The notes beneath the pieces were generated by a model, which saw only the letters and a program-made list of their open reading frames with translations, was not told the origin of the DNA and did not search any database. Below are positions 6,927 through 49,107 of a stretch of 64,000 bases of DNA, in pieces (position 1 is the first letter of the stretch; each line of letters opens with the position of its first letter). This stretch comes from an uncultured bacterium (GTDB lineage Bacteria > Patescibacteriota > Minisyncoccia > UBA6257 > 2-01-FULL-56-20). The DNA lies in NCBI GenBank assembly GCA_963725235.1, contig CAVRXN010000002.1:250902-314901 (forward strand), given 5' to 3'. The translations under genes were made by a program, and so were the position numbers.

Positions 6927-6973
6927 ATAAGTGTTCTTTAACAACTCTCTACGGAGAAAATTCAACAAGGAGG

Positions 6974-8355: not shown

Positions 8356-8375
8356 CGCTGCCCCAAGAGATGAGG

Positions 8376-8400
8376 ATGCCCCCGATCAATTCGGGGGCAT
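8376..8400. other. Perfect 10-bp GC-rich hairpin between the TR and the avd 3' end
   Basis: ATGCCCCCGA-tcaat-TCGGGGGCAT. It lies 20 nt after the TR and 7 nt beyond the avd stop. No clean T-run on either strand. Confidence 0.5.
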
Positions 8401-8407
8401 TGCTTCA

Positions 8408-8761
8408 TTACTGCTTTGTTGATCGTATCCATCCACCGATCTGCCGACCGATTTCATCAACGATTGTCTGAAGCGCGAGATACTTCTTTGCGTCGATCGC
8501 TTTCGTCTCTTTCATGAGCCGAATAAAAATGCGGAGAAAATTCAGTTTGATACTTGCACGCTCGAGAACGGCAGTTTTATCACTTCCAACTTTCGGCAAT
8601 TTGCTGGCCGTTAGGATACTTTCTAAGACATCGAGAATAATCAGCTCGCATCGTTCATAGATGGCATATCGGTCCTGTTTCGGAATAAGGTTTCGGTAGC
8701 TATAAAACGTTTTGTAGAGGTCGTAGGTTTGTTTGAAGATGGGTATATCAAAGTCGTCCAT
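8408..8761 (-). CDS. avd: DGR accessory variability determinant (Avd, four-helix-bundle family)
   Basis: 117 aa and helical. N-terminal IPIFKQTYDLYK and C-terminal EIGRQIGGWIRS fit the Avd / 23S-IVS four-helix-bundle pattern. Located between the TR and the RT. Confidence 0.8.
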   Translation of the reverse strand: MDDFDIPIFKQTYDLYKTFYSYRNLIPKQDRYAIYERCELIILDVLESILTASKLPKVGSDKTAVLERASIKLNFLRIFIRLMKETKAIDAKKYLALQTIVDEIGRQIGGWIRSTKQ

Positions 8762-8775
8762 ATAATTATTTTTTA

Positions 8776-9833
8776 ATGAAAATTTATCGCGACCTGTTCG
8801 ATCGTATCATCGCTCTCAAAAACCTATTCACCGCGTGGGAGACATTCAAGCAGGGGAAGAGAAGTAAGATCGATGTCATTGCGTTCGAGCGTGATCTTGA
8901 GCAGAATATTTTTCAGTTGCGACGAGATCTGCAGAGGAAAACGTACAGACATGGTTCGTACGCCGGCTTCTATATTCACGATCCGAAGCAGCGCCATATC
9001 CACAAAGCGGCGGTTCGCGATCGCGTTTTGCATCACGCCGTCTTCTCGGCGATCAATCCGATATTCGAGCCGACTTTTATCCCTACTTCGTTTTCCTGTC
9101 GCGTCGGATTCGGAACGCATAAAGGATTCGAAGTGCTTGTTGGCATGCTTCGGAAATGCGCTCAGAATAATACGCGCCCATGCTTTGTCTTGAAAGCAGA
9201 TATACGAAAATTCTTCGACAGCGTTGACCACGATATTCTACTCGAAATTTTGGCAAAACGGATTCAGGATGAAGACGCGATGTGGCTCTTGCGCGAAATC
9301 GTAAAAAGTTACGTAATTAAACAGAGAAGAGAGAGAGAGAGTTCCAAGTCGAATCCAAAAATGGCATTCCTATCGGTAATCTGACCTCGCAATTGTTCGC
9401 GAATGTCTATATGAATGAGTTTGATCAATTTATTAAGCATGAATTGCGAGTGAAAAATTATGTCCGTTATACCGATGATTTCGTGATCGTAAGCGACCGG
9501 CAAGAATATCTGGAAAAATTATTGCCGCGGATTGCAGAATTCTTACAATCTCGACTATCGCTCATACTACATCCAAAGAAAATCATACTTCGACCGTTTC
9601 ATCAAGGCATCGATTTTCTGGGCTATATAGCTTTACCAAAATATCGATCCATTCGCACGAAAACGAAGCAGAGAATTTTCAGGAAAATTGGCTACCGAAT
9701 CGCTGAATATGAACGAGGCCATCTTTCAAAAGATACGCTGAACCAGGTTTTCCAATCGTATCTTGGGGTTTTATCTCACGCCGATACGTATGAATTACAA
9801 AAGCGACTACTTAATGAATTTCCGTTGGGATAG
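8776..9833 (+). CDS. DGR reverse transcriptase, reading frame interrupted inside an (AG)7 tract
   Basis: Pieces 8776..9384 (frame 1) and 9321/9393..9833 (frame 0). Motifs KADIRKFFDSVDH, GIPIGNLTSQLFANVYMNEFD (DGR-type IGxxxSQ) and RYTDDFVIV (YxDD). Confidence 0.85.
9328..9341 (+). repeat. (AG)7 dinucleotide tract at the RT frameshift site
   Basis: agagagagagagag, preceded by agaga. Both RT reading frames are open only across this tract. Confidence 0.9.
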
Positions 9834-9895
9834 TAAAGGCATTGGGCAGATTGGAGCTCTTGCATCCCACTCCCATTTCTGCTATTCTATTCACC

Positions 9896-10111
9896 ATGGC
9901 AATCGAAGCACGAAAACGGGAAGGGGAAGCAGGCAACGCCCTCTTATACAGCTTCACCCGCAAGGTGAAGCGCAGCGGCATATTAAAAGAGGTGCGCAAT
10001 CGCAAGTTCTATAAGCGTACCGTCAGCCGCATCAAGCGCCGCTCATCCGCGATCCACCGCGAGGAGAAGAAAGCTGAAGTGGAGCGCATGAAGAAGCTTG
10101 GCCTGCTCTAG
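9896..10111 (+). CDS. rpsU: 30S ribosomal protein S21
   Basis: ATG 9896 inside track ORF 9842..10111. Motifs ALLYSFTRKVKRSGILKEVRNRKFYKRTVSRIK. Confidence 0.85.
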   Translation: MAIEARKREGEAGNALLYSFTRKVKRSGILKEVRNRKFYKRTVSRIKRRSSAIHREEKKAEVERMKKLGLL

Positions 10112-10152
10112 GACCTAGCGCACTCGCGTGGGCGACATGATATAATAGACGA

Positions 10153-10614
10153 ATGCTGTACGAACAGATCAACGCCGACCTGAAGACCGCAATGAAGGCG
10201 CACGAGCAATCGCGCGTCGAAGTTTTGCGTTTCGTGTTGTCAGGATTAAATAATGTTAAAAAAGAGAAAGAGATTAAAGAGCCAGGTGCGACGCTGACGG
10301 ACGAGGAAACGATTTCGACGCTGCAGAAAGAGGTGAAGCGCCGCCGCGACTCGATTGAACTTTTTAAGCAGGGGAATCGCGATGACCTGGTCACGAAAGA
10401 AGAAGGCGACCTCGCGATTATCGCAGCATACCTGCCGAAAGAATTGACGCGCGAGGAAATAGAAAAAATTGTCGACGATGCAATTGCCACGGTCAGCGCC
10501 GCCACCGGCGCGAAAGATTTTAACAGCGTAATGAAGGAGACGATGAAAGCGGTCAAAGGCCGCGCGGATGGGAAAGCGGTGGGCGAGATTATCAAGGCGA
10601 AATTGGGGAGTTAA
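10153..10614 (+). CDS. yqeY: GatB/YqeY domain protein
   Basis: N-terminus INADLKTAMKA...RVEVLR and the overall 150-aa helical pattern are typical of YqeY. Confidence 0.85.
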   Translation: MLYEQINADLKTAMKAHEQSRVEVLRFVLSGLNNVKKEKEIKEPGATLTDEETISTLQKEVKRRRDSIELFKQGNRDDLVTKEEGDLAIIAAYLPKELTREEIEKIVDDAIATVSAATGAKDFNSVMKETMKAVKGRADGKAVGEIIKAKLGS

Positions 10615-10615
10615 T

Positions 10616-11029
10616 ATGGCGAAGTCGATTCGAACGACGGTTACCGAAGCCCAGCTGCACAAGCTCGTCAAAAAAATATTGCTCCAGCTCAAAAAGCGAG
10701 GTTACACCCTCGATATTTTTTTACTTCCGCACGCGGAGATAAAAAAGCTGAAAGCGCGATTTATAAAAAAAAAGACTGAGCCGAACGTCCTGGCCTTCCC
10801 CGAGCCAATCGCATTCCCGCACCCAGAATCCAGCCGGAATAAAAAATATCTCGGTGAAATATTTTTGAATAAAGATATTCTGAAAAAATCCCCCGAACGG
10901 ACAGCGCCATTGCTCTTGCATGGAATCCTGCACCTGCTTGGATATGACCATATAAAGAAAGCCGATGCAGTGAAAATGGAAGGATTGGAGGAGAAGATTT
11001 TAATGAAAGTTTCATCCGCAGAAAGATAA
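10616..11029 (+). CDS. ybeY: rRNA maturation endoribonuclease YbeY
   Basis: Zinc motif HGILHLLGYDH. ATG 10616 chosen directly after the yqeY stop. Confidence 0.85.
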   Translation: MAKSIRTTVTEAQLHKLVKKILLQLKKRGYTLDIFLLPHAEIKKLKARFIKKKTEPNVLAFPEPIAFPHPESSRNKKYLGEIFLNKDILKKSPERTAPLLLHGILHLLGYDHIKKADAVKMEGLEEKILMKVSSAER

Positions 11030-11087
11030 AAAAGTCCACGCAACGGAGTTGCGCGGAAGGTAAAGGGCGATATCCCAGAAAGCGAAA

Positions 11088-11240
11088 TCAGCTGATGCCG
11101 AGCTCTTTTTGATCGTCCTTCCATTTGACGGTCTTACAATTGATACATGGCTCGCCGATGTAGAGCTCTCCGGTCGGGCCTTCGATTAAAGGGATCGGCG
11201 GTCGAAAAGCGTGCTCGCATTGAGAAGGATCAGTATCCAT
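11088..11240 (-). CDS. Possible 50-aa protein (CxxC)
   Basis: Below the track cutoff. GGAGG lies about 13 nt upstream of the ATG. Translation MDTDPSQCEHAF...GEPCINCKTVKWKDD. Confidence 0.3.
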   Translation of the reverse strand: MDTDPSQCEHAFRPPIPLIEGPTGELYIGEPCINCKTVKWKDDQKELGIS

Positions 11241-11337
11241 AATGATTGAAAACCTCCGAACTCATCCTACCGCCGGAAGCCGGTCTTTGTCCACTTTTCC
11301 ACTATCCTTTTTAACCCTTTCTTCATATAATTGAGAT

Positions 11338-12585
11338 ATGAAATTTGGAGGCATGAACCAGGGCGGCGATTTTATCACGGGCCTCGACGTTGGCACGTCG
11401 TCGATCAAGCTCGTCGTTGCCGAACGGCGCGCACATCGGCCGGCGCTCTTGCACGTCCATAAAGAAATGTGCGGCGGGATGCGGAAGGGTGCGATAACAG
11501 AAATTTCAGAAGTGTCGCAGGCGGTCAACCGTGCGCTGACCGAGGCAAAAAAAATCTCGAAAGCGGCAACGAAAAGAATTTACGTCAGCATCGGCACGCC
11601 ACTCGTTAAATTGCAATCATCGCGCGGCATCGTCGCCGTTTCGCGCGCCGACGCAGAGATTTATCAGGACGACATCGACCGCGCGAAGCGGGCAAGCGAA
11701 GCCGTCAATCTGCCGCAGAACCGGATGATTTTGCATACGATCGTAAAAGAATTCATGGTCGACGGCGTTGGCGATATCGCCGATCCACTCGGCCTTTCAG
11801 GCAGCCGTCTCGAAGTCCAGTCATTGATCATCGACGCTTTCGCACCGCATATCAAAACGCTCATCCACGCCGTCGAGCTCGCCGGCGGCGACATCGCCGG
11901 CATGATTTTCAGTCCGCTCGCTGCCGCCCGTGCCGCACTTTCGAAACGCCAGCGCGATCTCGGCGCCGCAATTATCGACATCGGTTTCGGAACGACCGGC
12001 GTCGCCGTCTTCGAAGAAAATAAATTGGTGACGACCGCAAAGTTTCCGGTCGGTGCCGGAAATATTTCGAACGACCTCGCGGTCGGATTAAAAATCGGCG
12101 TCGATGCCGCGGAAGCAGTCAAGCTCCACTATGGCTATGCGTTCGCAAAAGACGTCAACCAAAAAGAACAAGTCGAATTAAAAAAATTCACGCCCGAAGC
12201 GCGTTCGACGGTTTCGCGACGTTTCATCGCGGAGATTATAGAGAGCCGCCTCGAAGAGATTTTCGATCTTGTTAATAATGAATTAAAACTCGTGCAGAAA
12301 TTCGGTGAATTGCCGGGCGGTGTCGTCCTTGTTGGCGGGGGAGCAAAACTGCCGGGCCTGACGGATCTCGTCAAGCAGGAGATGCGACTGTCGACGCAGG
12401 TCGGCAGCGCGATTTCGAGCGAATGGGAAGCCGACGGCGGCGCATTCAAAGAATACCTCGAGGATCCAGAGTTTGTGGACGCTTTTGGCCTGGTTCTTGA
12501 AGGCATGAATATCGAGGGTTGGACGACCGAAAAGCAAGGCCCGAAGATTGATATCAAGGGGATTTGGAAGTATTTTACGCCGTAA
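11338..12585 (+). CDS. ftsA: Cell division protein FtsA
   Basis: Actin-like ATPase start ITGLDVGTSSIKLVV, plus GGGAKLPGL. Immediately upstream of ftsZ. Confidence 0.9.
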   Translation: MKFGGMNQGGDFITGLDVGTSSIKLVVAERRAHRPALLHVHKEMCGGMRKGAITEISEVSQAVNRALTEAKKISKAATKRIYVSIGTPLVKLQSSRGIVAVSRADAEIYQDDIDRAKRASEAVNLPQNRMILHTIVKEFMVDGVGDIADPLGLSGSRLEVQSLIIDAFAPHIKTLIHAVELAGGDIAGMIFSPLAAARAALSKRQRDLGAAIIDIGFGTTGVAVFEENKLVTTAKFPVGAGNISNDLAVGLKIGVDAAEAVKLHYGYAFAKDVNQKEQVELKKFTPEARSTVSRRFIAEIIESRLEEIFDLVNNELKLVQKFGELPGGVVLVGGGAKLPGLTDLVKQEMRLSTQVGSAISSEWEADGGAFKEYLEDPEFVDAFGLVLEGMNIEGWTTEKQGPKIDIKGIWKYFTP

Positions 12586-26874: not shown

Positions 26875-27285
26875 ATGTTATCCATCAAGTTACAGCGCAT
26901 AGGCAAGAAGCACCAGCCGAGCTATCGGCTCGTTGTCGCTGAAGCGCGCTCGAAGATGGCCGCTCCGCCGGTAGAGGATTTGGGTTCATATCAGCCACGC
27001 GGCAAAGCAGCTGCGTTTAAGAAGGATCGCGTCTCGTACTGGCTCGGCGTCGGCGCCCAGCCAACCGTCTCAGTCCATAACTTCCTCGTCGCACAGGGAA
27101 TCGTTACCGGCGGGAAGCTCGCCGTGAAGATGCCAAGAAAACTGGTAGAGCCGGCAGCGAAGGAGGCGGCGGTGGCGGAAGCCGCGGCGGCGCCGGAAAC
27201 GGCCACCCCAGCCGCGGAGGCCTCGACCGAAACTCCAGCAGAACCCGTTGCGGAAATTCCAGCAGAAGAAACACCGGCCGCGTAG
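26875..27285 (+). CDS. rpsP: 30S ribosomal protein S16 with an Ala/Glu/Pro-rich C-terminal tail
   Basis: MLSIKLQRIGKKHQPSYRLVVAEARS. ATG 26875 lies inside track ORF 26839..27285. Confidence 0.9.
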   Translation: MLSIKLQRIGKKHQPSYRLVVAEARSKMAAPPVEDLGSYQPRGKAAAFKKDRVSYWLGVGAQPTVSVHNFLVAQGIVTGGKLAVKMPRKLVEPAAKEAAVAEAAAAPETATPAAEASTETPAEPVAEIPAEETPAA

Positions 27286-27326
27286 CCGGTTTTTTCTTGT
27301 GCTATAATAAAATTTCTAAATCCCGC

Positions 27327-29145
27327 ATGACCCTTCTCTATTCCTATCTGAAGCGCTATCAAAAGCTGTTGTGGCTGACGCTCGTGTTCGCAACGATCAA
27401 CACGGTTTTTTCACTCGTCGATCCGCAAGTCTTCCGGTTGATCGTCGATAATTATGTTTCGCAGATCGGCACGATCTCCCGCGCCGACTTTTTGCGCGGT
27501 GTCGGGCTGCTCCTTGGCGCGAGCGTGGCCGCCGCATTCATCTCGCGCGTCGCGAAAAATTTCCAGCAATATTACGAAAATGTCGTCACGCAACGCGTCG
27601 GCACGGATCTCTACGCCCATAGCGTTGCGCACTCATTCTCGCTTCCGTACGCGATTTTCGAAGATCAGCGCTCCGGTGAACTCCTGCAAAAACTCCAAAA
27701 AGCGCGGCTCGATTCGCAGCAGCTGATCGTCAACTTTGTCGATATCGTCTTCGTCGCGCTCGTCGGCATCGTCCTCGTCATCGCGTACGCATTCTACATA
27801 AACTGGATCATCGGCCTGCTTATATTTCCTTGTCATTCCGATCCTCGGCACCGTTTTATTCTTCATCGGCCGTAAAATCAAGACGATTCAAAAAACCATC
27901 GTCGTCGAATCCGCGAACCTTGCCGGCTCGACGACTGAGACGCTAAGAAATGTTGAGCTCGTCAAAAGCCTAGGACTTGAAGACCAGGAAACAAAACGGT
28001 TGAATGCGGTCAATGATAAAGTGCTGGCGCTCGAGCTGTCGAAGCTAACGTTAATTCGAAAATTAAGTTTCACGCAGGGAACGACGGTCAACGCAATGCG
28101 TTCGGCGATTCTGTTTGCAATGCTGTGGCTGATTTTGATCGGTTCGATTTCGCTCGGTGAGTTTTTGACACTCTGGTTCTATTCGTTCTACATTTTCGCG
28201 CCGCTCGGTGATGTCGGCACGGTTGCCGCGCAGTACCAAGAAGCGAAAGGCAGCTTGGAGAAGCTCGAAGAAATTTTGGATATCAAGTCGGAAGAGAAGC
28301 CGGCTAATCCGGTCGCGATCGGGCAGTTGAAGGATGTTACGTTCGATCATGTCAGTTTTTCATACGGGGAAGCGGCTGTGGCAGCCGGCGGTAAGGATGG
28401 CTTGGTTGTCGCGCTCGCCGATGTTTCGCTCGAGATTCGCGGCGGCGAAGTCATCGCGTTCGCCGGCTATTCCGGTTCCGGCAAAACGACGATGATCAAA
28501 CTGCTCGTCGGGTTATACAAGCCGACCGTCGGAAATGTTTCCCTGAACGGCGTCGATGGTAACAATATCGATTACGACGTCCTGCGCCAGCACATCGGTT
28601 ATGTTTCGCAGGATACACAATTATTCGCCGGCACAATCCGCGAAAACTTGCTGTTCGTAAATCCGGATGCGACTGATGACGCGTGCTGGGAAGCGTTGCG
28701 CAGCGCCGCAGTCGCCGACGTCGCCGATCGCGGCGGCAAAGGACTCGATACGAAAATTGGCGAAGGCGGTTTGAAATTGTCCGGCGGCGAACGCCAGCGC
28801 CTCGCGATCGCGCGCGCGCTCGTTCGTAATCCCGATTTAATAATTTTTGACGAGGCAACGTCGTCACTCGATTCAATAACCGAGCGCTCGATAACCGACA
28901 CGATCAAGGAGATCACCCGTTCACGGCCGAACCTGATTACCGTGATGGTCGCACACCGTCTTTCGACCATCGCACACGCCGACCGTATCTACGTTTTGCA
29001 GAAAGGCAAAATCATCGAGTCGGGCTCGCATGATGCATTATTAAAAAATCATGATGGATTGTATGCGGCGCTGTGGAAAGAGCAGAGTGGTGCGGCTGCC
29101 GAACGTGGCGGCGCGACGGCGGGCGCTATCACCGCTGCGGTATAA
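27327..29145 (+). CDS. ABC exporter (fused permease + ATPase, MsbA-like), interrupted by one frameshift
   Basis: Walker A GYSGSGKTT, signature LSGGERQRLAIARAL, Walker B IIFDEATS. The TMD reads in frame 0 up to about 27825 and continues in frame 1 (open from 27802). The junction is in tatatttcc. Confidence 0.85.
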
Positions 29146-33482: not shown

Positions 33483-34388
33483 ATGCCAACCGCGACAGGT
33501 TTAAAAAAAGCAAAAATAAATGCGCAAAAGAAGCCTGCAAAATCTTTAGAAAAATTTAATGGTGTTTTTGGTAATCTTAAGGAAAAGATTATGCAAAAAC
33601 CTTATTACGATAATCCAAGTTTTGTTCTCTACAATGGAGATTCTCTAAATATCTTGGCTCAGTTGCCGGAGAATTCAATAGATATGATATTTGCCGATCC
33701 GCCATATAACCTTTCAAATGGAGGATTTTCGGTTCATGCGGGCAAAATGGTCAGTGTAAATAAAGGAGATTGGGATAAAAGCAAAGGTTTCCAAGATGAT
33801 TATGATTTTCACTATAAATGGCTTGAAGCGGCTAGGCGTGTTTTAAAGCCGCATGGAACATTGTGGGTGAGTGGTACTTATCATTCGATTTATCAGTGCG
33901 GTCATGCCATTCAGGCGCTTGGATATCATATTTTAAATGATGTAGCTTGGTTCAAACCGAATGCTGCGCCGAATTTGAGCGCTCGATATTTTACGGCAAG
34001 TCATGAAACATTGATTTGGGCGCGTAAAGATAAAAAAGCAAAACATATCTTCAACTACAATTTGATGAAGAATGGAGATTGGAATGAAGATTTTCTCAAA
34101 AAACCGAATATGCAGATGAGATCGGTTTGGGCGATTGGAACTCCGAAGCCGGCAGAGAAAATTTTTGGCAAACATCCGACACAAAAACCGAGCGCGTTGC
34201 TCAACCGCATCGTTCTTGCGAGTACTAATAAAGGAGATATCATCCTCGATCCGTTCACTGGGAGCTCGACGACCGGTTTGGCGGCTCATCTTCAAGATAG
34301 AAAGTTTATTGGCATCGATACTGAAAAACAATTCTTAGATTTGTCAATAAAACGGTTCGAACAGTTATCCAGTGTTATGCTAGCTTGA
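33483..34388 (+). CDS. Type II DNA methyltransferase (N6-adenine or N4-cytosine, beta class)
   Basis: Motif IV FADPPYN precedes motif I ILDPFTGSSTTG, plus HPTQKP. The true start may be the internal ATG near 33591. Confidence 0.9.
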   Translation: MPTATGLKKAKINAQKKPAKSLEKFNGVFGNLKEKIMQKPYYDNPSFVLYNGDSLNILAQLPENSIDMIFADPPYNLSNGGFSVHAGKMVSVNKGDWDKSKGFQDDYDFHYKWLEAARRVLKPHGTLWVSGTYHSIYQCGHAIQALGYHILNDVAWFKPNAAPNLSARYFTASHETLIWARKDKKAKHIFNYNLMKNGDWNEDFLKKPNMQMRSVWAIGTPKPAEKIFGKHPTQKPSALLNRIVLASTNKGDIILDPFTGSSTTGLAAHLQDRKFIGIDTEKQFLDLSIKRFEQLSSVMLA

Positions 34389-34427
34389 TCTTCTGCCCGA
34401 TTGCTATATATTTGATCCGTACATACC

Positions 34428-34841
34428 ATGCCCCGAGATACTCGAACAGGCGGTGTTCTGGAAGCAATGATTTTGCCGTCTTTGGCTAGGGGCGGTTATC
34501 AAGCTCAATCACAGGTGCAAGTTGGCATCCGGTTGGGCGGTGGTGGCCGGCATTTTGTCGATGCAACGGCTCAGAAGGAAGAAAAGAAATATCTCGTTTC
34601 TTTAAAATGGCAACAAACCTCCGGAACCGCAGAGCAAAAAGTTCCGTTTGAAATTATTTGCTTAATTGATGCTGTCGAAACTCATGGATACGATAAGGCG
34701 TATTTAGTGCTCGGCGGAGAAGGATGGACCTTGAGAGATTTTTATGTTGGAGGTGGGCTGAAGAAATATCTGCCTCATGATAAAGTAGAGGTTATGACGT
34801 TGGAAGGATTTGTGGCGAAGGCGAATAAGGGATTGCTGTAA
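34428..34841 (+). CDS. Putative type II restriction endonuclease (PD-(D/E)XK-like)
   Basis: Lies 39 nt downstream of the MTase on the same strand. HFVD ... VSLKWQ fits a D...(S/E)xK nuclease core. 137 aa. Confidence 0.55.
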   Translation: MPRDTRTGGVLEAMILPSLARGGYQAQSQVQVGIRLGGGGRHFVDATAQKEEKKYLVSLKWQQTSGTAEQKVPFEIICLIDAVETHGYDKAYLVLGGEGWTLRDFYVGGGLKKYLPHDKVEVMTLEGFVAKANKGLL

Positions 34842-34978
34842 TTATTTGACTTTTTATCCTTTGACGAACAGAATGCCACAACACATTATAGAAAGGGCTT
34901 ATAAAACTCATCAACTGAGGCATTTTGTTGTAAATCGTAATAAGATAAACTAAAAGAATATTTTAGGAATTAAAATTT

Positions 34979-37084
34979 ATGATAGACGTAATTCGCGGAG
35001 CTAATAAGAAGGAGAATTCGACGGCACAATTGGTTGAATACCTCCAGAAATATTTTTCATCAGGCACAGAAGCAGTCGTTTATATAGGATATCCCATCTT
35101 AAGCACTGCTGTTGGGGGGATAACACTTGACGCCGTTCTTGTCGCAGAATCTTATGGAATAATCGTTTTTGATTTAGTTGAAGGTACGTCATGCGGTGAT
35201 AGGACCGAGCAGAGAGATCAGTTGTTTGCCAATATGAAATCAAAGCTGATCCAAAACCCTGAACTAATGGAAAAGCGGGACCTCGGAGTTAGTTTAGAAG
35301 TTCTTACTTTTGCTCCTCAGGTAAAAAGTTCAGATGACATATCTGAAGACTTTATTAATACCTTAGATCTTTTATCGAAACGCCTTGATAAAATTAAAAA
35401 TGAGAAAAATGAGAAATATATCAGAAGTCTTATTTCGGTGATACAGGTAGTCACTAAACTTAACAGTTCACGGAGGCGACGTGTAAACAAACCTGATTCA
35501 AGAGGTGCTAAACTGAAAGAGCTTGAGGAATCTATAGCTAATCTGGATAGTAGGCAAAATCGAGCGGTTATCGAAACGGTAGACGGGCCACAGCGTATCA
35601 GGGGATTGGCAGGATCGGGAAAAACAATTATCTTAGCCTTGAAGGCTGCATACTTGCATTCTAGATATCCAGAATGGGACATTGCCATCACTTTTAATAC
35701 TCGATCCCTGAAACAGCAATTTGTTGATTTGGTTACCAAATTTACCATCGAGCAAAAGCGGGAAGATCCCGATTGGACCAAATTGAAGATTCTTCAATCT
35801 TGGGGTAGCCATGCATCAACTGGAATATATTATGAATTCTGTATGGCAAATAACGTGGAACCTCTTGATTATAAAAACGCAAACGCAAAAGCGCGAAATT
35901 TGTCTCCCCTTGGGTACGCCTGCTTAACAGCTTTAAATCATTTGATTGCAAGGAAAATAGAACCTATTCAAAAATACGATGCAATTTTGATAGATGAAGC
36001 TCAAGATTTATCGCCTCTATTTCTAAAGCTTTGTTACAAATTCTTGAAACCACCAAAAAGAATTATTTGGGCATATGATGAGTTACAAAATCTCAGCTTG
36101 TTAAGGATGCAGTCGCCACGGGAATTATTTGGAATTGAACTAAGCAACGACCAAGAAGCTGCCCAGCAAGATATAATACTTGATAGATGTTACCGAAACT
36201 CTCGGCCAGTTCTTGTTACTGCTCATGGCTTAGGTTTTGGAACTGTGCGTGAAGAAGGTTTAGTTCAGATGTTTGACGAGCCGTCGCTTTGGAAGGAGAT
36301 TGGCTATGAAGTAGAAGGGAAACTAGCTCAAAAAAATAAAGTTTCTCTATATAGAACAAAAGTAACCAGCCCACCCTTTTTAGAGGTACACTCTTCTGAG
36401 GATGATTTAATACAATTTCATAAGTTTACAGGCAGAGAAGAAGAAAGTGATTGGATTGCAGAGCAAATAGAAAAGAATTTAAGAGAAGACGAATTAACAA
36501 CTCGTGACATCGTGGTGATTAATTTAAATTCTCTTACGACGAAAGAAGACACTGCCCTTTTGAGGGCAAAACTTCTCGAGCGTGATATAAATAGCCACAT
36601 TGCTGGATTAACAACGTCGCCTGATCAATTCTTCAAAGATGATTCCATTGCGGTGACAGGCATTTATCGTGCTAAGGGCAATGAAGCTGCAATGGTTTAC
36701 GTTATGAATAGCGAATATGCGTATGGAGGAATTGAGTTGATAAAAAAGAGAAATATGTTATTTTCCGCAATTACTCGTAGTAGGGCGTGGGTTCGTGTGG
36801 CCGGTTGTGGATTACAAATGGACGCACTAATTAAGGAGTTTGAAGGTATAAAAAATGCAGGGTTTAGGCTATCTTTCATATATCCAACTCCAGAAGAAAT
36901 GCAGCGAATGAGGTTGATTAATAGGGATCTTACTGAAAATGAAAAAAAGAGGAAACAAAAATCACTTTACGACATTGAACAGCTTACCGCAGCACTTGAA
37001 AGTGGAGATGTTCTCATTGAAGATATTGACCCACAGACAAAGCAAAAATTATCCTTATTACTGAAACAATCAAACGATGAGTAG
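34979..37084 (+). CDS. SF1 (UvrD-like) helicase with an N-terminal NERD-like domain, defence-type
   Basis: Walker A GLAGSGKT, Walker B ILIDEAQD, CYRNSRP, YRAKGNEA, ITRSRAW. The N-terminal ~110 aa are nuclease-related-domain-like. Confidence 0.8.
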   Translation: MIDVIRGANKKENSTAQLVEYLQKYFSSGTEAVVYIGYPILSTAVGGITLDAVLVAESYGIIVFDLVEGTSCGDRTEQRDQLFANMKSKLIQNPELMEKRDLGVSLEVLTFAPQVKSSDDISEDFINTLDLLSKRLDKIKNEKNEKYIRSLISVIQVVTKLNSSRRRRVNKPDSRGAKLKELEESIANLDSRQNRAVIETVDGPQRIRGLAGSGKTIILALKAAYLHSRYPEWDIAITFNTRSLKQQFVDLVTKFTIEQKREDPDWTKLKILQSWGSHASTGIYYEFCMANNVEPLDYKNANAKARNLSPLGYACLTALNHLIARKIEPIQKYDAILIDEAQDLSPLFLKLCYKFLKPPKRIIWAYDELQNLSLLRMQSPRELFGIELSNDQEAAQQDIILDRCYRNSRPVLVTAHGLGFGTVREEGLVQMFDEPSLWKEIGYEVEGKLAQKNKVSLYRTKVTSPPFLEVHSSEDDLIQFHKFTGREEESDWIAEQIEKNLREDELTTRDIVVINLNSLTTKEDTALLRAKLLERDINSHIAGLTTSPDQFFKDDSIAVTGIYRAKGNEAAMVYVMNSEYAYGGIELIKKRNMLFSAITRSRAWVRVAGCGLQMDALIKEFEGIKNAGFRLSFIYPTPEEMQRMRLINRDLTENEKKRKQKSLYDIEQLTAALESGDVLIEDIDPQTKQKLSLLLKQSNDE

Positions 37085-37712
37085 ATTAGCAAATGAAATA
37101 AGAAGTGAGATATCATCCCTGACTCAGCTTTTGACTCAGGAAAGTCTATCTATCGATTCTCGTATTGCGCAACTCCAGATGCGAAATGGTATCTGCGAGG
37201 TGGGATGGTCAAAAAATGGACCCAATATTGCTTTAGCATTAAAAGATATCGGCTATTCGGAGTGTCATAAATATTTTTTTAGCAATCAGCAATATAATTT
37301 AATCTTACCTGACGGCGCGTTACTTCAGTTTCTTTACAGATTCGAAAAAGAGAAATTAATAGAGCATAGGGTTTCTTATATGCCCGCCCCTACAGATTTT
37401 GATGACAATGAGGAATTCGATATTGCTTCGAACGCAGCTCTACCGATTAGAATCGATTTTTCTCCAGATCAAGCTGTGCTCATAAATCACTCTGCGGCTC
37501 ATGTTCATTTGGGACACAATGTAGACTGGCGAATTCCGACTTCGGCTCCCATAACGCCTAAAGATTTTACACTTTTTATATTAAGAAGTTTTTATGCAGA
37601 TAAGCTTTCGCCAAAAATTATAACTGCCCTGTGTCAATCGCGTTCAGCCTTCCCCGAATCCATTGAAGAGATCGAAAAAGAAGCCATATATATTAAAGTA
37701 CCGAGCATTTGA
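37077..37712 (+). CDS. Hypothetical protein translationally coupled to the helicase (possible DUF2290-type partner)
   Basis: The start overlaps the helicase stop by 8 nt (ATGAGTAG). 211 aa. The family assignment rests on the two-gene architecture only. Confidence 0.55.
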   Translation: MSRLANEIRSEISSLTQLLTQESLSIDSRIAQLQMRNGICEVGWSKNGPNIALALKDIGYSECHKYFFSNQQYNLILPDGALLQFLYRFEKEKLIEHRVSYMPAPTDFDDNEEFDIASNAALPIRIDFSPDQAVLINHSAAHVHLGHNVDWRIPTSAPITPKDFTLFILRSFYADKLSPKIITALCQSRSAFPESIEEIEKEAIYIKVPSI

Positions 37713-37811
37713 AAAATCTTTAATGTATGTAGGTTTACAATGAAATAATCTTTTATGAAGAGATTATTCGAAATATTACGGGTTATTAAAACGATTCCGC
37801 ACTCATTTGCT

Positions 37812-37921
37812 ATCTTGTTTCCTCCACCCCCGCACGCCGTGAGCACGGTCGGACGTGATGGGTAAGGTGTTGTGGGCGATGTCGCAACTGCCGGGTCACG
37901 GGGGATTGGTGAGAGGAAGAT
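37812..37921 (+). repeat. GC-rich long-hairpin element, copy C
   Basis: ATCTTgtttCCTCCACCCCCG ... CGGGGGATTGGTGAGAGGaAGAT. A C-rich 5' arm pairs with a G-rich 3' arm, set in AT-rich surroundings. Confidence 0.6.
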
Positions 37922-38008
37922 TTAGATAAATAAAAGGGGGAGTAACCTGGATGGCACTCCCCGGCGGTGACATATTCTTTTTTTGAACAGGATTCACTGC
38001 CATTGAGG

Positions 38009-38173
38009 TTATTTGCGTTTCTCGTCTCGCGCTTTAAACTTCACCTCAACTTTTTCCTTAACCATTTCATGCGCCTTGAAAGAAACAGGGCCGTTCTTGG
38101 TTTCAAACGAAACCCGTATGGGCTCTTTCTTTGGCTTTTCGGCGTAGAAATCAACTAAATGTTTTTTAGCCAT
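38009..38173 (-). CDS. Possible 54-aa lysine-rich protein downstream of lexA
   Basis: Translation MAKKHLVDFYAEKPKKEPIRVSFETKNGPVSFKAHEMV... No clear SD. The opposite-strand track ORF 37967..38158 looks non-coding. Confidence 0.25.
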   Translation of the reverse strand: MAKKHLVDFYAEKPKKEPIRVSFETKNGPVSFKAHEMVKEKVEVKFKARDEKRK

Positions 38174-38236
38174 GGAAATTTTATTAATTTTGGGTAGCTA
38201 CCGTCGACCTTCGCGGTAGATTAATTTCTAGGATAA

Positions 38237-38845
38237 TCATTGGGAGATATTTTTAATAACATCGATGACCACTCCTTGAATTGCGAATCCAGTATTCCCG
38301 CTTCTTACGATAATCGGCTCCATTTTTTTATTTGCTGGTTGCAGGCGAATATGATCTTTTTCTTGGAAGAATGTTTTTAGTGTTGTTTCATAGTTATCGA
38401 TGAGAGCAACAACTTTTTCGCCATTATGCGCGATAGACTGATCTCTAACTAAGATGATGTCGCCATCATTGATATGTTCATCAATCATGCTTTCTCCAAC
38501 AACTTTTAATGCATAGATTCCTTCTAGGGACTGAGGTAATCTACTTCTTGGGACGGCGATAATTTCCTGTCCTTCTGTTATCGCTTCAATCGGCTGGCCC
38601 GCTGCAACTCTGCCAAGTAAAGGTATCTGAATTAAGTGATCTGATTTGATATGGAGAGAGCGTGCTTTATTTATCCCCGTGCCGAGATAGCCTTTCTCGC
38701 GCAATTTTTCTATATGCTCTTGGACGGTTCCTAAAGAGGTGACACCTAAATGATTGGCGATTTCCCTGAGAGATGGAGCTACGCCTCGTTTAGTGATCTG
38801 TATTCCAATAAAATCGAGGATTTCTTTTTGACGTTTAGTTAACAT
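38237..38845 (-). CDS. lexA: LexA-like S24 autopeptidase repressor
   Basis: Winged HTH PSLREIANHLGVTSLGTVQEHIEKL, Ala-Gly cleavage site VAAGQP, Ser nucleophile GESM, Lys in TTLKTF. Confidence 0.85.
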   Translation of the reverse strand: MLTKRQKEILDFIGIQITKRGVAPSLREIANHLGVTSLGTVQEHIEKLREKGYLGTGINKARSLHIKSDHLIQIPLLGRVAAGQPIEAITEGQEIIAVPRSRLPQSLEGIYALKVVGESMIDEHINDGDIILVRDQSIAHNGEKVVALIDNYETTLKTFFQEKDHIRLQPANKKMEPIIVRSGNTGFAIQGVVIDVIKNISQ

Positions 38846-38878
38846 GATGTTTTAATATGGTTAATATTGACCTATGGC

Positions 38879-38907
38879 TTGACTTGCGGGTCATTTACGG
38901 GTACTAT
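38879..38907 (+). promoter_or_regulatory. Sigma70-like promoter of the cyclase operon
   Basis: TTGACT (38879-38884), 17-nt spacer, TACTAT (38902-38907). Confidence 0.45.
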
Positions 38908-38910
38908 CTC

Positions 38911-38939
38911 ATTGTAATTCAGGAATGCTGTTTTGGCAA
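38911..38939 (-). promoter_or_regulatory. Sigma70-like promoter of lexA, overlapping the cyclase promoter
   Basis: Minus-strand TTGCCA (38939-38934), 17-nt spacer, TACAAT (38916-38911). The two -10 boxes are 3 bp apart on opposite strands. Confidence 0.45.
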
Positions 38940-38978
38940 GGAATGATAATTGCTTTATAAAATTAATCAAAAACTAAC

Positions 38979-39800
38979 ATGAATGATTTTGAAGAAAAGC
39001 TTTTCGTCGATGGCGTTTTAGAAATAGTCGATGAAGCCGATAAGAGATACGCGGCAGGTGTATCCATCGAAAAAAAAGATTTTATACCCCTGACGGATTC
39101 TATGCCGCTGGAAACAAATACTTGGTGGAGGGTGGATGACGTGGTGTGCTTGTACATCGACATGAAAGATTCAACCAAGCTATCCGTCCAGCATAAAGAT
39201 AAAGTTGCGGCAAAGATATATCAATATTTTACGGGAACGGCAGTAAAAATTCTGGATCACTTCGGGGCTTCTTATATCGATGTTCGCGGTGACGGAGCGT
39301 TTGGTTTGTTTGACAAAAATAAGATTTATCATGCATTTTCTGCTGCTATAACTTTTAAAACTATCGTTATGAAATATCTCAGCGAGGCCACAAAGGATGA
39401 CGATGTAAAAATTACTTGCCATCTCGGTATGGATATAAAAACTGTTTTGGTTAAGCGAATTGGTATGCGAAAGGTGGCTGGAAAATCAACAAAACAAAAT
39501 GAAGTATGGGCAGGGAAGCCGGTTAATATGGCTGCCAAGCTGGCATCAAAAGGAGATGCTAATCAATTGTTAATTTCCGAGCGGGTGTATTCAATTTTCG
39601 AGAAAGATGGGTCGGATCTAATTTTGTGGACTTGTGGATGTGGCAACATCGAAAAACCAGGCGAAAAAGTTCCGATTTGGAAGAAGATGGAATTAGAATC
39701 ACCGATTTTTGATTTTGCAGAAGCTTATTCCATGGAAAATTGTTGGTGCGAAAGTCATGGTAGCGAGTTTTGTTTTGGCATAATGGATTTGGATAAATAA
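38979..39800 (+). CDS. Class III nucleotidyl cyclase (Pycsar PycC-like), paralogue 1
   Basis: Metal Asp motifs LYIDMKDSTKL and VRGDGAFGLF, GKPVNMAAKLAS (Asn present, Lys where Arg is usual), LLISERVY. Confidence 0.8.
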   Translation: MNDFEEKLFVDGVLEIVDEADKRYAAGVSIEKKDFIPLTDSMPLETNTWWRVDDVVCLYIDMKDSTKLSVQHKDKVAAKIYQYFTGTAVKILDHFGASYIDVRGDGAFGLFDKNKIYHAFSAAITFKTIVMKYLSEATKDDDVKITCHLGMDIKTVLVKRIGMRKVAGKSTKQNEVWAGKPVNMAAKLASKGDANQLLISERVYSIFEKDGSDLILWTCGCGNIEKPGEKVPIWKKMELESPIFDFAEAYSMENCWCESHGSEFCFGIMDLDK

Positions 39801-39807
39801 TACTTAC

Positions 39808-40311
39808 ATGGGAAATACTCACAAAGAAATTACTATTGGGCGCGCAGAAAGCAATCTACAGCGGCAACTAGATTGGATCGGTCGATATGACGCCAGAATT
39901 TCGTTTGTAACGGGCATATGCATAGGTATGATTGGTTTATTGGTCGGTATAGTTCCTGCACCCGATAAGTGGACAACGGTTCTATGTATATCATTTTTTG
40001 CCACTATTGGCTTACTGATCGTGAGTCTTGTCTATGTTTACCTAGGTCAATATCCAAAAACGGATTCACCGAATCAATCCCTTCTTTTCTTTGGCACGAT
40101 TGCCAAGTTAAAACATGATGAATTCAATAAAAATTTTAAAGCAGCTTCAGACGATGATTATTTAGAGGATTTGCTTTCGCAGTGTCATATTAATGCTCAA
40201 ATCTTAAGTAAGAAATTTTATGTTTTTAAAAGAGCCTTGATATTAATGCTAATTGCGGTTGTTCCGTGGGCGATAGCTATTTATATAGTTAAATTGATAC
40301 CAGTGTCATAA
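39808..40311 (+). CDS. Three-TM small membrane protein (candidate PycTM-type effector)
   Basis: 167 aa. TM helices ISFVTGICIGMIGLLVGIV, WTTVLCISFFATIGLLIVSLVYVYL and ALILMLIAVVPWAIAIYIV. There is no room for a CAP-type cNMP-binding domain. Lies 7 nt after cyclase 1 and 4 nt before cyclase 2. Confidence 0.6.
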   Translation: MGNTHKEITIGRAESNLQRQLDWIGRYDARISFVTGICIGMIGLLVGIVPAPDKWTTVLCISFFATIGLLIVSLVYVYLGQYPKTDSPNQSLLFFGTIAKLKHDEFNKNFKAASDDDYLEDLLSQCHINAQILSKKFYVFKRALILMLIAVVPWAIAIYIVKLIPVS

Positions 40312-40315
40312 TCAA

Positions 40316-41023
40316 ATGGATTGGCCCGAAATATTAACAAATGAAGCCGAGGAAATCTTGACGACTAAATGGGATGAACGCGCTGGAAGTGTTGTCCCAG
40401 AATCCGATAGCGTTACCCTTAAGGATGGAGCGGTTAAAATTGATGCTACATTTTTATATGCTGATCTTGCTGGATCGTCGAAATTAGCAAGATTTTGTCC
40501 ATGGCAGACTACTGCAAAAATAATCCGTGCATATCTTTCGTGTTCGGTTCGGTTAATCAAAGCTTATGGAGGAGAGGTTCGTAGTTTTGACGGCGACCGT
40601 GTGATGGGTATTTTTATGGGAGATTTGAAAAATACTTATGCAGTAAGATGTGCACGGGAAATTGATTGGGTGGTAGAAAAGATAATCAATCCGAAAGCCA
40701 AGGAAAAATTTGAATCAGTAAGGAAGAACGGAATTGCAATTCGACATTGTGTTGGAATAGATACAGGAGAAACAGTCGCTGTACGTGCGGGGGTTCGCAA
40801 CAATAACGATCTTATCTGGATTGGGCGAGCGCCTAGCTTAGCGGCAAAACTTTCCGACATTCGCGCCTTTCCATATACTATCTATATAAGCAAAGATATA
40901 TATGGAGTTTTAGGAGCTACGGAAAAAGTTGTGAATAATACGCTGATTTGGGAGGAGGAAAATTTTATCTTCGCTGGTGATAATTTATCTGTTTACAGAA
41001 CTTCGTATTATCGAACTCCTTAA
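40316..41023 (+). CDS. Class III nucleotidyl cyclase, paralogue 2 (divergent catalytic set)
   Basis: LYADLAGSSKL, FDGDRVMGIF, GRAPSLAAKLSD (Ser at the usual Asn position), IYISKDIY. Confidence 0.75.
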   Translation: MDWPEILTNEAEEILTTKWDERAGSVVPESDSVTLKDGAVKIDATFLYADLAGSSKLARFCPWQTTAKIIRAYLSCSVRLIKAYGGEVRSFDGDRVMGIFMGDLKNTYAVRCAREIDWVVEKIINPKAKEKFESVRKNGIAIRHCVGIDTGETVAVRAGVRNNNDLIWIGRAPSLAAKLSDIRAFPYTIYISKDIYGVLGATEKVVNNTLIWEEENFIFAGDNLSVYRTSYYRTP

Positions 41024-43816: not shown

Positions 43817-44317
43817 GTGGGCAATGATAAAATGGTTATTATGCTTTTCTTTACCCGTCCCAGCGCGCAGTCGCGTCCTCGCCGCCTGACGCGTCTAACC
43901 CGCGCCGACTATCTCCGCAACAAGCCGGCCGCCGCCGCGCTCGTCAGGCAAAAAATCGCGCAGCTGAATACTGCGTACGGTTTCGAATTTCGCGCCGTCG
44001 CGATCCGCAACCAAAAAACGCGATGGGGGAGTTGCTCACGCCGCGGCAACCTGAGTTTCAACTGGCGGATCGTGCTGCTCGACGAGCCCGCGCAGAATTA
44101 TCTGATCGTGCACGAGCTCTGCCACCTCGCCGAGTTCAACCACTCACCGCGCTTCTGGGCGCTCGTCGCACGGACCGTGCCGGAGTATGCCGCGATCCGG
44201 CGCCGGCTACGACGCGTGCGACTCGCGGATTTAGTTGCGAGCGTTGAGTCCCAGCGGCCAGCGGATCCGGAGCCGACTTCGCCAGCGCAACCTTCTGCGT
44301 CCGTGGCCATTTCTTAA
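43817..44317 (+). CDS. YgjP/SprT-like zinc metallopeptidase-fold protein (DUF45-type)
   Basis: WGSCS..GNLSFNWRI and the zinc motif HELCHLAEFNHS. Confidence 0.75.
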   Translation: MGNDKMVIMLFFTRPSAQSRPRRLTRLTRADYLRNKPAAAALVRQKIAQLNTAYGFEFRAVAIRNQKTRWGSCSRRGNLSFNWRIVLLDEPAQNYLIVHELCHLAEFNHSPRFWALVARTVPEYAAIRRRLRRVRLADLVASVESQRPADPEPTSPAQPSASVAIS

Positions 44318-44510
44318 TCTCTGCCTCGCGCTTCAGAGCTGCACTCCGCGTCGCGCGCCTTTCAAAATACAAAATTCGCCGCGCACCATGCGCCCGCGTA
44401 TACGCACCACCCTTGCCGCGCCGATGTTCCTCGAACCGCCGCGCGACATCCGTCGTTATGCCGGTATATATAGTGCGGTCAGCGCATTCAAGGAGGTAGA
44501 CGTAGTACAT
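44136..44510 (-). CDS. GIY-YIG nuclease-domain protein
   Basis: YYVYLLECADRTIYTGITTDVARRFEEH ... EAEIKKW. The ORF has no stop until 44136, so its tail overlaps the convergent YgjP-like gene by about 180 nt. Confidence 0.65.
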   Translation of the reverse strand: MYYVYLLECADRTIYTGITTDVARRFEEHRRGKGGAYTRAHGARRILYFERRATRSAALKREAEIKKWPRTQKVALAKSAPDPLAAGTQRSQLNPRVARVVAGAGSRHTPARSVRRAPRSAVSG

Positions 44511-44660
44511 ATATAGATATTCTACCATTGGCGCTTCGCGGATTTTTCTGCTATACTTCTTCAGTACTGACCCCCTATGAGCCGAGCTCGGGGGCATTTC
44601 ACGCATTAGCGAGATTAAATTTTTATTAAATTCGCGCGGCGTAAATTTAACAAAATTTTC

Positions 44661-47296
44661 ATGAAAGACAAAATCATCATCAAAGGTGCGCGGGAACACA
44701 ATCTGAAAAATATCTCGCTTGAATTGCCGCGGGACAAGATGATCGTGTTCACTGGGCTTTCGGGTTCGGGGAAATCGTCGCTCGCGTTCGACACGATTTT
44801 CGCCGAAGGCCAGCGCCGCTATATCGAATCGCTGTCCGCTTACGCGCGGCAGTTTTTGGGCCGCCTCGATAAGCCGGACGTGGACGACATCGAGGGCTTG
44901 TCGCCGGCGATTTCGATCGACCAGAAATCGCCATTCGGCGAATCCGCGCTCGACGGTCGCGACGATCACGGAAATTTACGATTATCTTCGCGTGCTTTTT
45001 GCGCGCGCGGGAAAGCCGTATTGCCCGACGCTGCGGCCGAGAAATCCGCAAACTGACGAACGAAGAGATCGTCGACGTCGCGATCGAGTTCGCGGATGAG
45101 AGTAATGACAGGCAAGAAGCAAGTTGAAGTCGCGGTCGGAAAAAAGCGCATCATCGGCGGAAATTTATTGATCCTGGCGCCGGTCGTCCGCGGCCGGAAA
45201 GGGGAGTATTACCAGATGCTCTATGATTTCCTGAACGCCGGATTCAGCGAAGTGCGCGTCGACGGCAAATATCATTCGCTCCGCGAGCGCGTCGAACTCT
45301 CGCGCTACAAAGCGCACAACATCGATCTCGTCGTCGACCGCATTCCGGGCGGCATGGATTTCAAAGAAAAAGATAATCGGTTGCGCTTGTCCGAAGCGAT
45401 CGAGTCCGGCTTGAAATATGGCGAAGGCGTCGTCACGATCATTGCGAGCGGCACGGTGCAAGAGAAGAAGCGCCGCTGGAACAAAGAGGTTTCGTTGTCC
45501 GCAAAATTCACCTGTCCGAACGACGGCTTTTCGTTCCCGGAAATCGAGCCGCGCCTGTTCTCTTTCAATAGCCCGTATGGCGCATGTCCGGAATGCCATG
45601 GCCTCGGCACGAAAGATTTATGGTCCGAAGAAATTTGTCCGGTCTGCGACGGCAAGCGTCTGCGCGAAGAAAGTTTGAACGTTTTGATCGATGGAAAAAA
45701 TATCGTTACCGTCACGGCATATTCGATCGAGGACGCGCTCGAGTTTTTTAAAAAACTGGAATCATCGTTTTTCGCGCAAAAAAAGAATGCGTCGCTTGCC
45801 GAAGTTGCCGAAGCGCCGCTCCGAGAGATTAAAGCCGATTAAAATTCATGATGGATGTCGGTCTGGAATATCTGACGCTCGACCGCAAAGCGGGGACGCT
45901 CTCCGGCGGCGAAGCGCAGCGAATCCGGCTCGCGTCGCAGATCGGCTCGCGCCTCGTCGGCACGCTCTATATATTAGATGAGCCGACGATTGGCCTGCAT
46001 CAGCGCGACAACGCGAAACTGATCAAAACGCTCCAGGATCTGCGCGATCTCGGCAACACGATCATCGTCGTCGAACACGACGAAGACACGATCCGCGCGT
46101 CGGATTATCTCGTGGACATCGGCCCGGCGGCGGGCGTGCATGGCGGCCAAGTCGTCGCGCAGGGCCCGATCCCGGAAATATTAAAAGATCCTGAAACAAA
46201 ATTCGCTCGACGCTGCAATATTTGCGCGGCAAGAAATTTATCGAGGTGCCGGAAAAGCGGCGGCAAGTCGATTTCAAGAAAATCGAGAGTATCAAAGATC
46301 CGCGGCGCGCACGCAGAACAATTTAAAAGATGTTAACGTCGATATTCCGTTGCGACGCTTCACGGCGGTGACCGGCGTTTCCGGCTCCGGCAAAGTCGAG
46401 TTTGGTCTACGACGTTTTGTACAAAGCGGTTGCGGACAAGCTCAATCGATCAGCGTGAACCGGCTACAAACCGGTCGGCTACAAATCCATCCTCGGCCTC
46501 GAATACATCAAGCGCATCATCAACATCGACCAGGCCGCGATCGGCCGCACGCCGCGCTCGAACCCCGCGACCTACGTCGGCGCGTGGACGCACATCCGCG
46601 ACCTGTTCGCCTCATCCGAAGACGCGCGCGTGCGCGGCTACAAGCCGGGCCGGTTCAGCTTCAACGTTCCCGGCGGCCGCTGCGAAAATTGCGAAGGCCA
46701 TGGCACGATCGCGATCGAAATGCACTTCTTGCCGACGGTTTACGTCACGTGCGACATCTGCAAAGGCAAACGCTTCGACCGTGAAACGCTCGAAGTGGAA
46801 TACAAAGGCAAAAATATTTATGACATCCTCCAGCATGACGGTCGAGGAAGCCGTCAAATTCTTCGAAGATATTCCGTGGCTGTTCGAGAAATTTAAAATC
46901 CTCGAAGAGGTCGGCTTGGGATATCTCGAACTCGGCCAGTCGGCGACGACGTTGTCCGGCGGCGAAGCACAACGGATTAAGCTTTCCGCCGAGCTCGGCA
47001 AGCGCGACACGCGCCGGACGTTATACTTACTCGACGAACCGACGACCGGTTTACATTTCGCCGACATCGACCAACTATTAAAAGTTTTACAGCGCCTCGT
47101 CGACCGCGGCAACACAGTCGTCGTTATCGAACACAATCTCGATGTCATCAAGACCGCCGACTGGGTCATCGACCTCGGTCCCGAAGGCGGCGCGCGCGGC
47201 GGCAAGATCATCGCGACTGGAACGCCGGAAGAGATCGCACGGAAGGCGGGGAGCTTTACGGGGCAGTACTTGCGGAAAGTGTTGCAGAAATCATGA
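44661..47296 (+). pseudogene. uvrA: Excinuclease ABC subunit A, heavily disrupted (about 9 frameshifts plus 1 in-frame TGA)
   Basis: UvrA motifs are spread over three frames. They include [129 protein letters not shown] and [12 protein letters not shown]. Track pieces are 44661..45056, 45096..45842, 45848..46336, 46350..46784, 46630..46896 and 46430..47296. Confidence 0.9.
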
Positions 47297-47829: not shown

Positions 47830-49107
47830 ATGAAAAACCCATTTGCAAAAACATCAATTCCATACAAAAAGCTTCCGGACTCACCGGGCGTCTACATTAT
47901 GAAAGACGCGGGCGACCGCGTGCTCTACGTCGGCAAAGCAGGCAACTTACGCCGGCGGGTTTCGAGCTACTTCGAGCGGCCACATGATGTCCGGATCGAA
48001 ACACTTGTCAACAAAATTGCAACAATCGACCACGAAAAAACCGACACCGCACTCGAAGCGTTGATCCTCGAAGCGGAGTTGATTCGGAAGCTGACACCGC
48101 CATTCAACATCAAAGAAAAAGATGACAAAAGTTTTTTGTATGTCGGGATAACGCGCGACAAATTTCCGCGCGTGTTACTCGTTCGCCGGACCGACGCTGC
48201 ATTTTCTTCGCGGACCGCCGCGCAGTACGGCCCATTCACGTCGGCCTCGTCCGCCCGCGAGGCGATGAAAATCTTGCGGAAAATTTTCCCGTGGTCAACA
48301 CATGATCCCGAACGCATCGGCACATTCGAGCGGCCGTGTTTCGACTACGAAATCGGTTTGTGCCCGGGGACATGCATTGGCGCGATCACGCGTGAGGATT
48401 ATCTGAAGAACATCGACCGGCTAAAATTATTTTTCGAAGGCAAGAAGAAGCAAGTGATCCGAGCAATCGAAAAAGATATGGCTACCGCAGCACGGGCACT
48501 CGACTTCGAACGCGCCGCGAAGCTGCGCCACCAGCTCTTCGCGTTAAAACATATCCGCGATACCGCGTTGATTTCTGATGCGAGCGCGACAATCGTTTTG
48601 CCCACCGATGATGAAAAAAATATTAAAACAGGAGGCGTCGGCACACCCTACCGCATCGAGGGCTACGACATCTCAAACATCTCCGGCACATCGGCCGTCG
48701 GCTCGATGGTGGTTTTTGAAAATGGCGAACCAAACAAAAACGAATATCGAAAGTTCAAAATTCGCACGATTTTCAAACCGAATGACGTCGGCATGTTGAC
48801 CGAAGTGCTCGAGCGGCGATTTAAACATGGCACCGAACCAACCGGCTGGTCGCTGCCAAACTTGATATTAATAGATGGCGGTATCGCGCAGGCGAACGCC
48901 GCGAAAAAAGTGCTGATGCGGGCTGGATTGCGCATCCCGATCCTCGGTATTGCGAAGGGTGCAGAGCGAAAACGGAACGATATCCTCGGCGCGATCCCGC
49001 GCGGCAGCGGCGTTACGAAGGAAATTTTAATCCGCGTGCGCAACGAGGCGCACCGGTTTGCGATCGGGTATCATAAAAAGCTCCGCGCGTGGACGACGCT
49101 GCAATAA
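47830..49107 (+). CDS. uvrC: Excinuclease ABC subunit C (compact, no C-terminal HhH2)
   Basis: GIY-YIG domain GVYIMKD..VLYVGKAGNLRRRVSSY. UVR domain FERAAKLRHQL. RNase H-like endonuclease domain IEGYDISNISG. Confidence 0.85.
   Translation: MKNPFAKTSIPYKKLPDSPGVYIMKDAGDRVLYVGKAGNLRRRVSSYFERPHDVRIETLVNKIATIDHEKTDTALEALILEAELIRKLTPPFNIKEKDDKSFLYVGITRDKFPRVLLVRRTDAAFSSRTAAQYGPFTSASSAREAMKILRKIFPWSTHDPERIGTFERPCFDYEIGLCPGTCIGAITREDYLKNIDRLKLFFEGKKKQVIRAIEKDMATAARALDFERAAKLRHQLFALKHIRDTALISDASATIVLPTDDEKNIKTGGVGTPYRIEGYDISNISGTSAVGSMVVFENGEPNKNEYRKFKIRTIFKPNDVGMLTEVLERRFKHGTEPTGWSLPNLILIDGGIAQANAAKKVLMRAGLRIPILGIAKGAERKRNDILGAIPRGSGVTKEILIRVRNEAHRFAIGYHKKLRAWTTLQ

Follow-up and report, generated by a model that had tools for sequence, protein, structure and literature searches.

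Insertion-type frameshifts clustered in the uvrA gene of a Paceibacteria contig probably stem from local consensus error

Taken at face value, the 64,000-nucleotide stretch of DNA analysed here (the window) would have its CPR bacterium scored as lacking nucleotide excision repair. On the forward strand, at positions 44661–47296, the open reading frame list and a three-frame translation show pieces of UvrA (excinuclease ABC subunit A) scattered over all three frames, in a gene broken by ten one-base indels and one TGA. Has the organism lost uvrA, or is the deposited sequence at fault? The pattern of the sequence favours an intact gene in the cell, and we consider it probable, on sequence grounds, that the lesions are local assembly or consensus errors and not mutations in the organism. 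The organism itself belongs to the Paceibacteria (Parcubacteria, CPR), as do all of its best protein matches and the 80 related genome loci.

Lesions in the uvrA reading frame

We placed the lesions by a MAFFT nucleotide alignment of the window uvrA with the intact uvrA genes of two related loci, L001 and L002, with which it shares 85–86% nucleotide identity and 93% amino-acid identity (P0001 and P0002). Instead of a single uninterrupted reading frame, the deposited gene has nine +1 insertions, one −1 deletion and one in-frame TGA; all remaining length differences in the alignment are multiples of three. The insertions, all on the + strand and written here with the inserted base between hyphens in its codon context, begin with a C at 44931 (TCG-C-CAT, a TCG/TCC wobble pair), an A at 45028 (CCG-A-CGC, a CCG/CCA wobble pair in the first zinc-module CxxC, where L002 has CCA) and a C at 45109 (GA-C-A). 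Between 45833 and 45834 one base is missing, at the first position of a Ser codon. Further insertions are a G at 46193 (CCT-G-AAA), a C at 46208 (CT-C-G), an A at 46298 (AAAG-A-TCC), an A at 46315 (GC-A-G), a G at 46395 within the second Walker A motif, GSGK-S (AAA-G-TCG), and one at 46832 that can be read as CTCC-A-GC or CT-C-CAGC. Translation and comparison with relatives put the TGA, at 46456–46458, in a hypervariable linker (RSA*TGY versus RVTSKAGY in relatives).

An earlier reading of the sequence alone had recognized uvrA as broken by frame changes and by the TGA at 46456–46458, and the alignment with L001 and L002 bears this out. Its count of nine frame changes needs correction: there are ten, two of them near 46200. 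A reassignment of TGA as a sense codon was considered and ruled out, as TGA terminates uvrA itself and 3 of the 22 confident genes.

On the opposite strand, an open reading frame of 277 amino acids (44136–44969) runs from a small GIY-YIG nuclease gene (about 44290–44540) into the 5′ end of uvrA and additionally overlaps a YgjP-like gene. Gene callers that preferred this antisense frame to the uvrA fragments may be the reason that the fragments lack database records. Exact look-ups of the 131-, 248- and 162-amino-acid uvrA fragments returned no record, nor did one of the ribosomal protein S16 gene (26875–27285), and two fragment searches of a database of 5.8 billion proteins gave no match at 95% identity or above and recovered no intact sibling copy.

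Selection on the repaired protein

To repair the gene, the nine inserted bases were deleted and the deletion was padded before translation. The product is a full-length equivalog match to both NF001503 (1292.7 bits; cut-off, 1147) and TIGR00630 (1232.3 bits; cut-off, 729.8). It retains the Walker A and B motifs, the ABC signature and the zinc-module cysteines, and two LSGGE motifs and the CxxC pairs can be read in the translated pieces of the gene. Compared with 82 relatives, it has no difference at the 344 invariant columns and none at the columns that are at least 95% conserved; intact relatives average 0.63 and 4.5 differences, respectively, and the window ranks 81 of 83. Its dN/dS against L001 and L002 is 0.056–0.060, in a range of 0.03–0.063 for pairs of intact genes. 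Neither the raised dN/dS nor the conserved-site substitutions that mark relaxed selection on a pseudogene were found. The remark, made from the sequence alone, that the motifs are still readable is upheld by the invariant columns and by the NCBIfam UvrA equivalog cut-offs that are passed.

A very recent pseudogene, in which UvrA and with it nucleotide excision repair were lost through eleven independent disabling mutations, is nevertheless suggested by the presence of the lesions in the deposited sequence and by their clustering in one gene, as would be seen for a dead gene among live ones. CPR genomes are also reduced. Furthermore, the closest relative, L001, in which uvrA is intact, has a 170-nucleotide frameshifting deletion in uvrC (L001 4293–5421) that separates the GIY-YIG from the UvrC_M region. 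Either uvrC is truly inactivated there or that JGI contig is misassembled, and given this deletion a real erosion of excision repair in the clade is conceivable. Against such a loss stands the state of the protein. Substitutions ordinarily outnumber indels by at least five to one in mutation-accumulation and pseudogene studies, so some 14 or more replacements at invariant codons would be expected alongside ten neutral indels, and none is seen; indels would have had to outnumber substitutions. Eleven disabling mutations without any conserved-site substitution make a recent real loss quite unlikely.

Indel spectrum and clustering

The spectrum of the indels points the same way. Indels and gene decay in bacteria are deletion-biased and arise mostly by slippage in runs; Mira, Ochman and Moran are said to have described the deletion bias of bacterial genomes in 2001. 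In uvrA, 9 of the 10 indels are insertions, the inserted base is unlike either neighbour in 8 of the 9, and the insertions do not lie in homopolymers. The deletion bias and the slippage in runs of a typical bacterial spectrum are thus both missing, and a nine-to-one insertion bias in non-homopolymer context is the opposite of what bacterial decay produces.

Six of the nine insertions look as though both synonymous alleles of a wobble site had been written one after the other, against an expected fraction of 0.33 (P = 0.04); in the window this signature is of marginal significance and, at 6/16, it is absent from the two other broken loci described below (L085 and L087). The lesion sites showed no significant association with local divergence (P = 0.12). 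Sliding-window identity of the window uvrA to the 82 relatives revealed no segment above 93%, and chimerism with a known species is thus not demonstrated. At third codon positions the window uvrA is the most central of the 83 sequences, a position that is confounded by its high GC3.

The lesions are also clustered well beyond chance. There are 10 frameshifts in the 2.6 kb of uvrA versus 2 found across the other 61 kb, and the rate outside uvrA would give about 0.09 lesions in the gene. Generic, randomly placed sequencing noise that happened to hit uvrA by bad luck is consistent with the two further frameshifts in the window, at 27818 and about 9350, and with the existence in databases of noisy long-read contigs in which every gene is fragmented (L086 and L085). 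However, it does not account for the density in uvrA, and a comparison of 14.5 kb outside uvrA with an independent assembly (see below) gave no indel at all; we regard this explanation as highly improbable. The suspicion, voiced from the sequence alone, that the lesions are too clustered for random sequencing error is confirmed by the same densities.

Neighbouring genes and the rest of the window

Directly downstream, uvrC (47830–49107, + strand) encodes 425 amino acids, versus 419–433 in relatives, with GIY-YIG, UVR and RNase H-like domains; it is identical in a contig of the independent assembly (L003). The sequence-only reading had called uvrC intact, and its length and domains agree. An intact adjoining uvrC, reproduced independently, speaks against a real loss of the repair system.

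Lesions in the flanks were sought by comparing the window with all open reading frames of the related loci and with Pfam domains. The genes for ValS, AlaS, RelA, a PMT_2 transferase, a DUF4012 protein, FtsZ, ParA, a ClpX-like protein and others are single full open reading frames with the expected domains. The flanks had been described as free of lesions, which is correct for valS, alaS, relA and the genes of the PMT_2 transferase and the DUF4012 protein but overlooks two breaks. One is a +1 insertion at 27818 (CT-G-C, + strand, at the wobble position of a Leu codon), found by open reading frame comparison with relatives, which splits an ABC transporter gene (27297–29145) with permease and ATPase parts; relatives have one protein of about 590–640 amino acids. 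This insertion is outside a homopolymer and has the wobble-pair form, and is thus of the same type as those in uvrA. The other, detected with Pfam, splits the frame of a reverse transcriptase in a (GA)n run near 9320–9390.

Elsewhere in the window, a region at about 34000–41000 has a GC content of 0.39–0.41 versus about 0.52 in the remainder. It contains a UvrD-like helicase with a DUF2290 gene (34979–37712) and a Pycsar-like pair, comprising a cyclase (38979–39800) and a PycTM effector (39808–40311). At its left edge are a DNA methylase (33483–34388) and a PDDEXK_11 gene (about 34428–34841). The region looks like an acquired defence island.

The split reverse transcriptase belongs to a diversity-generating retroelement with a complete set of parts at 6974–9833. 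These include a target gene (6974–7873) with a variable repeat at 7738–7871; a template repeat (8222–8355), with 13 of the 14 mismatches to the variable repeat at template adenines; a bAvd gene on the − strand (8408–8761); and the reverse transcriptase (8776–9384 plus 9393–9833), with its frameshift in the (GA)n run near 9320–9345. A resident system with reverse transcriptase, bAvd and both repeats raises the idea of targeted biological hypermutation or recoding, either by action of the retroelement on uvrA or by programmed frameshifting. However, the changes made by such retroelements are substitutions directed by adenines, within a target set by the repeats, and not insertions, and the template repeat matches 7738–7871 only. 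A second copy or repeat of uvrA was not found within the window, the ten indel sites, inspected by eye, have no common sequence or methylation-like motif, and the reverse transcriptase is itself split. We therefore consider hypermutation or recoding extremely unlikely.

The same signature in related assemblies

Comparing the integrity of uvrA in sibling genomes, as had been proposed from the sequence alone, we found the gene uninterrupted in 82 of the 82 relatives examined, which again argues against a real pseudogene. In L001 and L002, as in the window, uvrA follows a YgjP-like gene and precedes uvrC. In the related loci, nucleotide identity between Paceibacteria species is highest for uvrA and uvrB, at 83–89%, versus about 73–80% for their neighbours.

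Searches with short UvrA fragments led to two related contigs with Flye-style names. In L087 (ERZ25039529 contig_15687), uvrB and uvrA at 5700–12522 are broken by seven insertions and no deletions, and the genes next to them, for an ABC transporter, UvrC, an FAD oxidase and a VWA protein, are unbroken. In L085 (ERZ25039480 contig_120138), uvrB and uvrA at 3020–7850 have 11 insertions and 2 deletions; many genes of this contig are split, not uvrA and uvrB alone. With the window counted in, the three assemblies add up to 28 insertions versus 3 deletions. The error signature thus recurs at the same kind of locus in further assemblies of this style, as would be expected of an artefact, and this recurrence counts against a real pseudogene.

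Could the lesions be real all the same, with UvrA just lost from a Paceibacteria population in a burst of non-slippage +1 insertions? Such a burst would point to a new mutational process that favours insertions and strikes the genes of excision repair. The broken uvrA and uvrB genes of L085 and L087, together with the uvrC deletion of L001, could then be parallel cases. We consider this reading very unlikely.

Comparison with an independent assembly

An independent check came from three Logan contigs of run ERR11523662 (L003, L084 and L088), which encode proteins identical to those of the window and were retrieved through the neighbouring genes. Together they cover 14,673 nucleotides of the window, a length over which five mismatches but not a single indel occur. 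The uvrA share of this coverage is 134 nucleotides in the 3′ end, starting at 47163, and includes no lesion site; no contig spanning a lesion site was found among the three. L003 differs from the window at one base only, a synonymous wobble change that falls within those 134 nucleotides of uvrA. One other Logan contig has 0.3% single-base differences, which indicates that close variants coexist in the sample.

Contigs of ERR11523662 start at conserved ATPase motifs, at 47163 (the DLGPEGG region of UvrA) and at 28465 (Walker A of the ABC transporter). Here the graph of the assembly may fork, at k-mers that would be common to other genomes.

Probable origin of the lesions

Insertion bias away from homopolymers, a protein without signs of relaxed selection, an intact gene in all 82 relatives and the same signature in L085 and L087 together support consensus error as the source of the lesions. 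Among the three options offered by the sequence-only reading, a locally poor or chimeric assembly is accordingly the one that we favour; recent loss is unlikely and hypermutation is without support. In the cell, uvrA and uvrC most likely form an intact excision-repair set.

The source contig, 0.2–1 Mb long, belongs to a metagenome-assembled genome and most likely comes from a long-read assembly. Consensus indels that disrupt gene calls are well documented for long reads (PMC9262707), and a large Nanopore-only set of metagenome-assembled genomes, built with Flye plus Medaka, includes many of the relatives of this clade (PMC12313526). Any connection of the window with Nanopore data is guesswork, based on the names of contigs and on the relatives.

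We hypothesize that the lesions arise from the conservation of the gene. As uvrA and uvrB are far more conserved than their neighbours, foreign reads would be expected to pile up there in a complex community: reads of related strains, or of unassembled or rare species, may be recruited across species boundaries, or the assembler may collapse the genes. Consensus calling or polishing on such a mixed pile-up could then sometimes retain an extra base where the alleles differ, which would yield +1 insertions. The 6/9 wobble pairs, the form of the insertion at 27818, the wobble mismatch of L003, the coexisting variants, the length of the source contig and the many relatives in a Nanopore-only collection fit a mixed pile-up without being decisive. 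An explanation by consensus error must also account for the TGA at 46456–46458.

Implications

The finding is biologically ordinary. It serves to warn that, in metagenome-assembled genomes, highly conserved genes above all may be mistaken for pseudogenes. Should the proposed mechanism be correct, false pseudogene calls in long-read metagenome genomes would be likeliest for the genes with the highest conservation, among them uvrA, uvrB and probably others, and the inference of metabolic and repair capacities would be biased for uncultured lineages. Genes with multiple insertion-type frameshifts that keep all of their conserved residues would make a useful screen.

Comparison with known systems

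As a protein, the repaired product resembles canonical class I UvrA (TIGR00630/NF001503): it is full length, has the two ATPase modules together with UvrA_inter and the zinc modules, shares 93% identity with intact UvrA of Paceibacteria, and is encoded in a uvrA–uvrC neighbourhood like that of relatives. In contrast to the canonical gene, the deposited one cannot be translated in one frame. Several frameshifts and a stop in one gene with intact neighbours are also found for pseudogenes of reductive genomes, such as those of Mycobacterium leprae and Rickettsia; unlike these, the window uvrA has no excess of amino-acid substitutions, is insertion-biased and lacks a slippage context. A further likeness is to the indel errors of long-read metagenome-assembled genomes, a phenomenon described in general terms in PMC9262707. 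Here, too, a gene with perfect conservation in all other respects is disrupted by indels of one base, on a contig that is accurate elsewhere, and related long-read-style contigs behave alike. Whereas the classic pattern of such errors is one of homopolymer deletions spread along the contig, the insertions here lie off homopolymers and are concentrated in one highly conserved gene.
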